This document shows, piece by piece, positions 31,410-32,110 of a stretch of 64,000 nucleotides of DNA; position 1 is the first letter of the stretch, and each line of letters begins with the position of its first letter. Position numbers and translations under genes: made by a program. Origin of the DNA: Eledone cirrhosa. Lineage: Eukaryota. Location of the stretch: NCBI GenBank assembly GCA_964016885.1, contig OZ024756.1:14570001-14634000 (forward strand), written 5' to 3'. The notes under the pieces were generated by a model. The model searched no databases. It was not told the origin of the DNA and saw only the letters and a list, made by a program, of their open reading frames with translations.

Positions 31410-32030
31410 CCCTTCACAACATTTCTATCTTGACCGCTAGCCACGTGATGTTTTCCACCCCTTTTGAATTCGTTACTGGCGGCAATCAATTTGGAAATGT
31501 TGGTCCTAACTAAGGGAATCTCCCTAACCCTAACCCTTCACAACATTTCTATCTTGACCGCTAGCCACGTGATGTTTTCCACCCCTTTTGAATTCGTTAC
31601 TGACGGCAATCAATTTGGAAATGTTGGTCCTAACTAAGGGAATCTCCCTAACCCTAACCCTAACCCTTCACAACATTTCTATCTTGACCGCTAGCCACGT
31701 GATGTTTTCCACCCCTTTTGAATTCGTTACTGACGGCAATCAATTTGGAAATGTTGGTCCTAACTAAGGGAATCTCCCTAACCCTAACCCTAACCCTTCA
31801 CAACATTTCTATCTTGACCGCTAGCCACGTGATGTTTTCCACCCCTTTTGAATTCGTTACTGACGGCAATCAATTTGGAAATTTTGGTCCTAACTAAGGG
31901 AATCTCCCTAACCCTAACCCTTCACAACATTTCTATCTTGACCGCTAGCCACGTGATGTTTTCCACCCCTTTTGAATTCGTTACTGACGGCAATCAATTT
32001 GGAAATTTTGGTCCTAACTGAGGGAATCTC
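31410..32030 (+). repeat. Five 112-bp units joined by (CCCTAA)2-3 telomeric hexamers
   Basis: Units start at 31410, 31534, 31664, 31794 and 31918; hexamers at 31522-31533, 31646-31663, 31776-31793 and 31906-31917. Confidence 0.95.
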
Positions 32031-32110
32031 TTGAAAAGCTCGGAGCCTTATGGATAATACGACGATTAGACATTTCTACAAAGTACGAGCGAAACTATCG
32101 ATAGTAGGGA
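32027..32110 (+). ncRNA. Hammerhead ribozyme, U3-A8 core variant with long stem II loop
   Basis: TCTC-TTGAAAA-GCTCG..(43 nt)..CGAGC-GAAAC-TATCGATA-GTA-GGGA; stem III palindrome ACTATCGATAGT. Confidence 0.7.

Follow-up and report, generated by a model that had tools for sequence, protein, structure and literature searches.

The window analysed here, a stretch of 64 kb, is AT-rich and animal-like, with many TA microsatellites and short repeats, one of which we take to be an octopus SINE. It contains a tandem array in which a 112-bp unit occurs five times, with starts at 31410, 31534, 31664, 31794 and 31918. The linkers between units consist of 2, 3, 3 and 2 perfect CCCTAA hexamers (31522–31533, 31646–31663, 31776–31793 and 31906–31917), exactly as a preliminary description of this DNA had given them. 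The array spans ~620 bp and is derived from a dispersed hammerhead repeat. The features of the locus are as follows, the units and linkers being defined by sequence and single-nucleotide differences (SNPs).

31233..31409, plus strand: repeat-copy sequence to the left of the array, its outer limit approximate; on the minus strand AGGG/T across 31409–31413 is the putative telomerase seed (the slash marks the break)
31410..31521, plus strand: unit 1, G70 G90 A103, end copy 'A'
31522..31533, plus strand: linker (CCCTAA)2
31534..31645, plus strand: unit 2, A70 G90 A103, mosaic of unit 5 on the left and unit 1 on the right
31646..31663, plus strand: linker (CCCTAA)3
31664..31775, plus strand: unit 3, identical to unit 2
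31776..31793, plus strand: linker (CCCTAA)3
31794..31905, plus strand: unit 4, A70 T90 A103, mosaic that switches between positions 90 and 103
31906..31917, plus strand: linker (CCCTAA)2
31918..32029, plus strand: unit 5, A70 T90 G103, end copy 'B', whose last bases are the helix I 5' strand of the hammerhead
32025..32112, plus strand: type I hammerhead with U3-A8 core, from motif scan and predicted fold
32123..32393, plus strand: two diverged (78–79%) copies of a 140-bp repeat, the downstream part of the same repeat copy, from sequence and contig depth

On both strands of the 64-kb window, runs of at least two telomeric hexamers are confined to the array linkers, with more than 31 kb scanned on each side, and no CCCTAA occurs between 31918 and 32568. 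A search for CCCTAACCCTAA allowing at most one mismatch gave six matches in the window, all within the array, where 0.18 were expected; none of 100 shuffles gave six. The four junctions within the array have an identical pair of breakpoints, and BLAST within the window returned no second copy of the unit or the ribozyme among the matches listed. As the preliminary description stated, unit 1 is preceded by CCGGCCTA immediately before CCCTT, and the motif scan confirmed that unit 5 runs straight into the U3-A8 core TTGAAAA (32031–32037). Its statement that the array ends exactly at a hammerhead is right as to the contact, but the end falls inside the ribozyme, between the helix I strand and the core. 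This places the right junction 76 nt ahead of the predicted cut and 1 nt short of the core.

Frame analysis and the lack of a usable database match led us to reject a coding function of the 112-bp unit. No stop-free frame of 120 aa was found inside 31302–32400 (a six-frame view was also checked), and the 48-aa frame that crosses unit 1 (31367–31510) gave no usable Atlas match. The SNP at unit position 103 (31511–31513, 32018–32020) turns TAA into TGA at the end of this 48-codon open frame, probably by chance.

The hammerhead comprises helix I (32025–32030/32107–32112, with an A–C mismatch at 32026 in the array copy), the core at 32031–32037, a helix II of 5 bp (32038–32042/32086–32090) with a 43-nt loop, GAAA at 32091–32094, a perfect 12-bp palindrome (32094–32105) and a GUA that ends at 32106, after which the cut is predicted. 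The three-way junction is the minimum free energy (MFE) structure of 32024–32113; in the longer segment 32015–32125 the MFE structure is without the hammerhead (z = 0.89). It is the single ribozyme motif in 31233–32400 (32031–32106), with no such motif inside the units. Rfam at gathering level gave three tRNA-like matches and no ribozyme in the 64-kb window, and with E values up to 10 it gave 45 matches in 29400–33000, none covering the array or the core of its ribozyme. The motif has the U3-A8 core, GAAA, NUH site, three helices and palindromic helix III of Penelope-type hammerheads. Its core and helix III match the description in the available text of Cervera and de la Pena (2014, PMC4209133), which bears out the earlier assignment to the Penelope-like kind.

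To place the locus within its repeat family, we used public sequence runs, of which six were found; three contain the stretch, and those three come from one sample and study. None of the six is labelled as long-read, and no RNA run was listed as containing the stretch, which has no bearing on expression. Four of the six were compared, on 31880–32400 (521 of the 1,168 bases searched), a region that covers one linker, unit 5, the ribozyme and downstream DNA. X1 and X2 are sets of contigs and may derive from the window's own source sample; X4 and X5 are RAD reads from two other samples with the same species label. Contigs lose rare variants, and their summed depth does not equal copy number. The region was matched by 907 of 16,517,967 contigs in X1 (682 of them less than 95% alike) and by 908 of 16,285,364 in X2 (717 less than 95% alike). 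Such numbers of mostly diverged contigs indicate that the unit and ribozyme belong to an abundant, diverged and interspersed family. Our literature search found no description of the array or of its repeat family, most subscription journals being outside its scope.

At the left end of the unit (31917), 18 contigs in X1 and 20 in X2 run on into ordinary flank resembling that before unit 1, with loose ends of median length 76 nt and 72 nt, respectively. The unit's left end is therefore not a family boundary. The flank at 31233..31409 was identified through family contigs that extend beyond the unit start, the region of contig placement being 31880–32400. The telomeric junction was represented by one contig per run among those listed, each with three hexamers, at a depth of 18.6 (X1) and 22.3 (X2); the 16 family contigs listed have depths of 3–12. 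Depth in the linker bin was 18.6 (X1) and 12.4 (X2), compared with ~1,150 summed over the unit. One junction contig per run among those listed, together with the low linker depth, fits a single junction locus, although further such loci may exist, rare variants being lost from contigs. The preliminary description had looked to a genome-wide search for the same junction at other loci; the public runs gave no second junction type among the 907 (X1) and 908 (X2) contigs, as far as listed. Over 32123–32393, summed contig depth rises to about 22,000–23,000, ~20 times that of the unit; the 140-bp repeat appears to be a satellite-like family of greater size to which the hammerhead family is joined.

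The runs also bear on whether the array might be an assembly artefact or have the wrong copy number. The evidence consists of short-read contigs and reduced-representation reads only, and a two-hexamer junction was absent among the contigs listed for X1 and X2. Against this reading, the three-hexamer junction is present in contigs of two runs, the SNPs are ordered between units, and two other samples with the same species label show depth across the linker: at 31905, without an added hexamer, depth was 2 in X4 and 3 in X5. In these two runs molecule ends gather at 31975/31978, the unit's GAATTC. These depth columns, which lie below the listing threshold and may include PCR copies, suggest that the linker junction is present in two more individuals. 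We give the artefact reading hardly any credence.

We then compared the alleles of the array with those of the family. From the difference table we used 28 of the 39 listed places, after removal of 11 that fell short of 85% in one or both contig runs. In 17 of the 28 the window base made up less than 15% of depth in both contig runs. Five of these 17 lie in the unit and ribozyme (195 bp, 2.6%) and the other 12 in the 140-bp repeat region, where the count may be inflated by paralogous alignment. The rare base is present in all five units at unit positions 46 (C) and 109 (A), although 93–94% of family depth at position 46 and 96% at position 109 has another base (rare alleles below 7%). Since all five units share two family-rare alleles, local growth from one aged family copy is the most likely origin of the array, as read from the sequence comparison. 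Units drawn from different family templates would not share rare alleles, so such a source is unlikely. Window alleles had a depth of 44–75 at 31963 and 32026, and of 50–75 at 32049 and 32106, sites that are single in the locus. Because of this similar residual depth, the shared alleles are best seen as rare alleles that occur in a few other copies as well. A single rare template as the source of all units is compatible with the allele data alone.

Family alleles also inform the state of the ribozyme. At 32026 the family has G in 96% of depth, which pairs with C32111 to give a 6-bp helix I, and at 32106 it has C in 98% of depth, which gives a GUC site; the family ribozyme thus looks intact at the sequence level. 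Depth was highest over the ribozyme 3' half in all four runs. In the MFE fold of the array copy, A32106 pairs with U32031. In hammerheads a C3–G17 pair blocks NUG sites, which provides an analogue for this pairing. From the predicted fold and this analogy, cleavage by the array copy is likely to be impaired by the helix I mismatch and the A32106 change. The preliminary description had named an inactive and unconserved hammerhead as a finding against its reading; the ribozyme is conserved in the family, which keeps the 6-bp helix I and the GUC site, but the array copy carries two likely damaging changes. The helix I change at 32026 is present in all five units and therefore predates the duplication. 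The ribozyme was likely a bystander in the formation of the array.

Three of the 112 sites distinguish unit 1 from unit 5 (unit positions 70, 90 and 103). With unit 1 designated A and unit 5 designated B, the inner units 2, 3 and 4 read BAA, BAA and BBA. In every inner unit B alleles stand to the left of A alleles, an arrangement expected when unequal crossing-over of A-linker-B chromatids expands the array. This polarity would arise by chance in one of six orderings under serial copying with random errors (three SNPs, p ~0.17), so the support that it lends is modest. The recurrence of the same two breakpoints at four junctions is as expected of copies of one junction. We consider it probable that the array represents one aged hammerhead-bearing repeat copy in which a single break was healed with telomeric repeats, giving a 112-bp duplication that was then amplified by unequal crossing-over.

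In this scheme a family copy would first have inserted and aged, in line with the rare alleles observed along the unit and ribozyme. At a staggered break, the minus-strand end would then have been extended by two or three TTAGGG repeats and rejoined, which would produce the 112-bp duplication, A-linker-B; the break, telomeric addition and duplication we infer from the seed, the identical ends and the un-arrayed family copies. Copies A and B would next have acquired the observed differences at 3 of 112 sites. Finally, three unequal crossovers, the likely mechanism given the observed pattern, would yield inner units with B on the left and A on the right, and one slippage would convert two hexamers to three. 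In its minimal form the reconstructed history needs a single junction, three point changes, three crossovers and a single slippage, and it reproduces the linker series 2, 3, 3, 2. The preliminary description had itself named amplification by ordinary unequal crossover with slippage among the findings that would undo its reading, and the SNP pattern fits crossing-over plus one slippage. The idea of a relic of a telomere-associated retrozyme loses ground likewise, since no second junction type was found among the contigs listed and the SNPs fit unequal crossing-over.

It is conceivable that the five units arose at once, in a single repair of several rounds in which telomerase healed a broken end again and again at one seed and the end each time re-entered the locus at one point, by template switching or from a rolling small circle. 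The SNPs would then have arisen later or come from an error-prone polymerase. Such a repair fits the local origin, the identical ends and the variable linker length. It would, however, require re-entry at the same base four times with just 1 nt of microhomology, and it does not predict the B-left/A-right polarity. We regard it as unlikely.

The junction itself carries marks of telomeric addition. Read on the minus strand, ...GTGAAGGG-TAGG in the natural flank is replaced by ...GTGAAGGG-TTAGGG at the junction. At the left break 5 nt (AGGG/T, minus strand) are in register with the added TTAGGG repeats; at the right break 1 nt is shared with the repeats. The junction amounts to a 112-bp direct duplication of the target. 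In family copies, which are paralogues and not orthologues, the break site lacks hexamers, as seen in the 18 and 20 contigs that continue into plain flank. In-register bases and target duplication are described as marks of short interstitial telomeric insertions in the accessible portions of Nergadze et al. (2007, PMC2246262) and Santagostino et al. (2020, PMC7215372), and in-register nucleotides on a G-rich 3' end are taken in the former to argue for telomerase. By analogy with these insertions, the AGGG(T) seed on the minus strand was likely extended into hexamers by telomerase or a similar activity. TTAGGG is suggested as the telomere repeat of an octopus in the available text of PMC6160780. 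Of the earlier proposal, telomerase-like addition at a near-telomeric seed is likely right, given the 5 nt in register; repeated addition with re-priming on a ribozyme template is not supported. In the tabulated data of PMC2246262 and PMC7215372, as available, duplication accompanies 4.5–16% of mammalian insertions, and no case of a 112-bp duplication appears among the tabulated insertions.

Telomere-like 5-mers occur at 8 of 661 positions on the minus strand of the element (5 clusters) and at 2 of 661 on the plus strand, with no clear enrichment. A right break as close as 1 nt to the ribozyme core has a chance expectation of 2 x 5 / 665, or ~1.5%, for one landmark in the 665-bp element, a figure that rises if several landmarks are allowed post hoc; this nearness tells against the preferred reading. 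On the plus strand the junction AGGGA-ATC-TCCCT forms a small hairpin, and snap-back synthesis could account for the first three bases of the linker.

This hairpin, as a possible template for those three bases, is among the points that favour a source of the hexamers other than telomerase, whether an end-joined telomeric fragment or near-telomeric unit ends that the duplication made perfect and slippage later expanded. CCTA-CCCT is already present in the natural flank, and capture of a telomeric fragment is a named alternative in the excerpted text of PMC2246262. Plain duplication, on the other hand, would not make 12 nt of new perfect repeat, and that same text's argument from in-register bases on a G-rich 3' end, of which there are 5 here, points to telomerase. 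We think an origin of this kind doubtful.

The preliminary description had read the array as a record of alternating telomerase-like addition and re-priming on a ribozyme-bearing template. An endonuclease-less Penelope-like reverse transcriptase (RT) would have alternated with telomerase and re-primed four times on ribozyme RNA beside the hammerhead. Stated more broadly, the break inside the hammerhead would not be due to chance: the family's ribozyme region would be a preferred rejoining or re-priming site for telomerase-healed ends, and the array would record several rounds of addition and template re-entry. The ribozyme and the C-rich repeats do share one strand, linker lengths vary between 2 and 3, the right break lies 1 nt from the core, and the SNP ladder U5-U4-U3/U2-U1 is obtainable by serial error-prone copying. 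Moreover, the available text of PMC6431247 describes Terminon copies that are 5'-truncated by short telomeric stretches in head-to-tail arrays. In Terminons, however, according to the same text, the repeats lie immediately downstream of the hammerhead, whereas here they precede the core and come between it and helix I; an Athena/Terminon-like process would put them on the opposite side of the ribozyme. Cleavage would leave an RNA that ends at 32106 and not at 32030. Also contrary to this model are the identity of both ends at all four junctions, the one junction contig per run among those listed, the two rare alleles common to all units and the lack of a long coding frame in 31233–32400. Since the family data argue against it, the Penelope-like RT model is disfavoured, and we hold both the specific and the broader form to be very unlikely.

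Among known systems, the closest analogue is a short interstitial telomeric insertion accompanied by duplication of the target, with amplification on a tiny scale in the manner of CenTel. The likeness to short interstitial telomeric insertions (PMC2246262, PMC7215372) lies in perfect hexamers at an internal site; the locus has an internal hexamer run, an un-inserted ancestral form, an in-register seed and a flank change of the end-joining type. It differs from the mammalian insertions described in the available parts of those papers by the 112-bp duplication, the five-unit amplification and the invertebrate-like genome, probably a cephalopod one to judge by its repeats. The CenTel mosaic satellites of Arabidopsis interstitial telomeric domains (bioRxiv 10.64898/2026.05.10.723265, seen in part) likewise combine telomeric islands with a truncated local repeat and in-place tandem amplification. 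CenTel, as described there, is of centromeric satellite origin and reaches megabases, whereas the array here spans 620 bp and stems from a dispersed hammerhead repeat. The array is likely a known kind of repair scar and not a new retroelement.

Athena, Coprina and Terminon elements, as far as the excerpts of PMC6431247 and PMC8557442 describe them, resemble the array in having a hammerhead and C-rich repeats on one strand and head-to-tail units with short telomeric spacers. The Terminon repeats are reverse-complement telomeric repeats. In contrast, the repeats of the array are not family-wide, its ends are invariant and it has no RT frame. Telomeric repeats are not the regular 3' end of the family, there being one junction contig among 907 and one among 908, as listed. 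The locus has no RT frame of the endonuclease-less kind, which is compatible with a non-coding end fragment. The 64-kb window contains no telomeric array, but the locus may still lie near a chromosome end.

The hammerhead resembles the type I hammerheads of metazoan Penelope-like elements in the available text of PMC4209133, with a palindromic helix III, a 6-bp helix I in the family and dispersed high copy number, and it has the same core as the U3-A8 variant of Schistosoma Cercyon. It differs in its 43-nt loop II, its 12-bp palindrome and in that we found no link to a coding element: no Penelope-like coding frame is present at the locus, the closest GIY-YIG-like frame being 20 kb away. Non-LTR retrozymes of metazoans share with the array non-coding tandem repeats near a type I hammerhead, but their monomers, of ~150–300 bp, are each bounded by a ribozyme (PMC7761336, in its accessible part), whereas here the repeated unit lacks the core and one ribozyme follows the whole array. 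An identity as a non-LTR retrozyme is not supported, as the monomers have no hammerhead and 31233–32400 has one motif.

In its preferred reading, as a healed break amplified by unequal crossing-over, the array is of modest importance: outside mammals, it preserves a clean record of a germ-line break that was repaired with telomeric repeats and gave rise to a long duplication of the target. It is a telomere-containing minisatellite caught at birth, the order of events being readable from three SNPs and the linker counts. If several rounds of addition and re-entry at the ribozyme were the true origin, such an array would be a hybrid of telomerase healing and Penelope-type priming at an internal locus of a cephalopod-like genome; the Penelope-like RT model, if true, would tie telomerase and Penelope-type RTs together in one event and would matter far more. 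As a by-product, the analysis yields an abundant family of U3-A8 hammerheads that have a long loop II and go undetected by Rfam.

A relaxed scan of the 64 kb gave 13 hammerhead-like motifs, so that a ribozyme near any feature of the window is a common occurrence. The twelve further motifs are the following.

5303–5351, 29546–29590, 29785–29830, 30135–30185, 30867–30905, 50238–50286, 57840–57885 and 59140–59184, plus strand: hammerhead-like motifs
57672–57627, 46754–46631, 30013–29963 and 9993–9962, minus strand: hammerhead-like motifs

Several of the twelve form one family with a TA-palindromic helix III, with two pairs close together on opposite strands, and some may be due to chance. The motif at 30867–30905 is a second with U3-A8 and has a weak Rfam Hammerhead_1 match (30862–30911). 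A near-perfect 169-bp inverted repeat at 29903–30245 (98%, 5-nt spacer), with an outward-facing hammerhead motif in each arm, is similar to the inverted structures that have been described at the ends of Penelope-like insertions. On the plus strand, 10807–11400 holds a 197-aa stop-free frame that is GIY-YIG-like (first Atlas matches 0.96, with GIY-YIG in 13–18% of members); Pfam gave no family for either of the two frames tested, this one included. From its sequence the frame is likely the endonuclease end of a Penelope-like element.

Upstream of helix I, 32014–32022 contains CTAAC followed by AG, ending 2 nt before the helix. In Drosophila virilis Penelope an intron ends at the helix I 5' end (PMC4209133, available text); here CTAAC and AG stand closer together than a usual branch point would allow. 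A 19-nt pattern of the ribozyme 3' half matched four metagenome loci, which were dismissed as unrelated, all four being alike over 19–21 nt only and having no telomeric run. Two AT-rich contigs of one metagenome assembly (L002:205–223 and L003:159–177) have in common with the ribozyme 3' half its GAGC-GAAA-palindrome-GTC word and are alike in nothing else; they could be unrelated hammerheads or chance.

TA-flanked copies of a ~200-bp repeat with a long internal palindrome lie at 30993–31210, 32409–32663, 34595–34828 and 29258–29291. The array region lies between two of them, which are in inverted orientation, and the copies are probably independent insertions of an abundant repeat. The near-identical tRNA-like Rfam matches at 57050–57120 (minus strand), 57278–57348 (plus strand) and 3782–3851 (minus strand), two of them inverted and 157 bp apart, are likely heads of a tRNA-derived repeat. 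Finally, 21583–26993 is occupied by a 30-bp satellite of ~181 copies with 94% matches.
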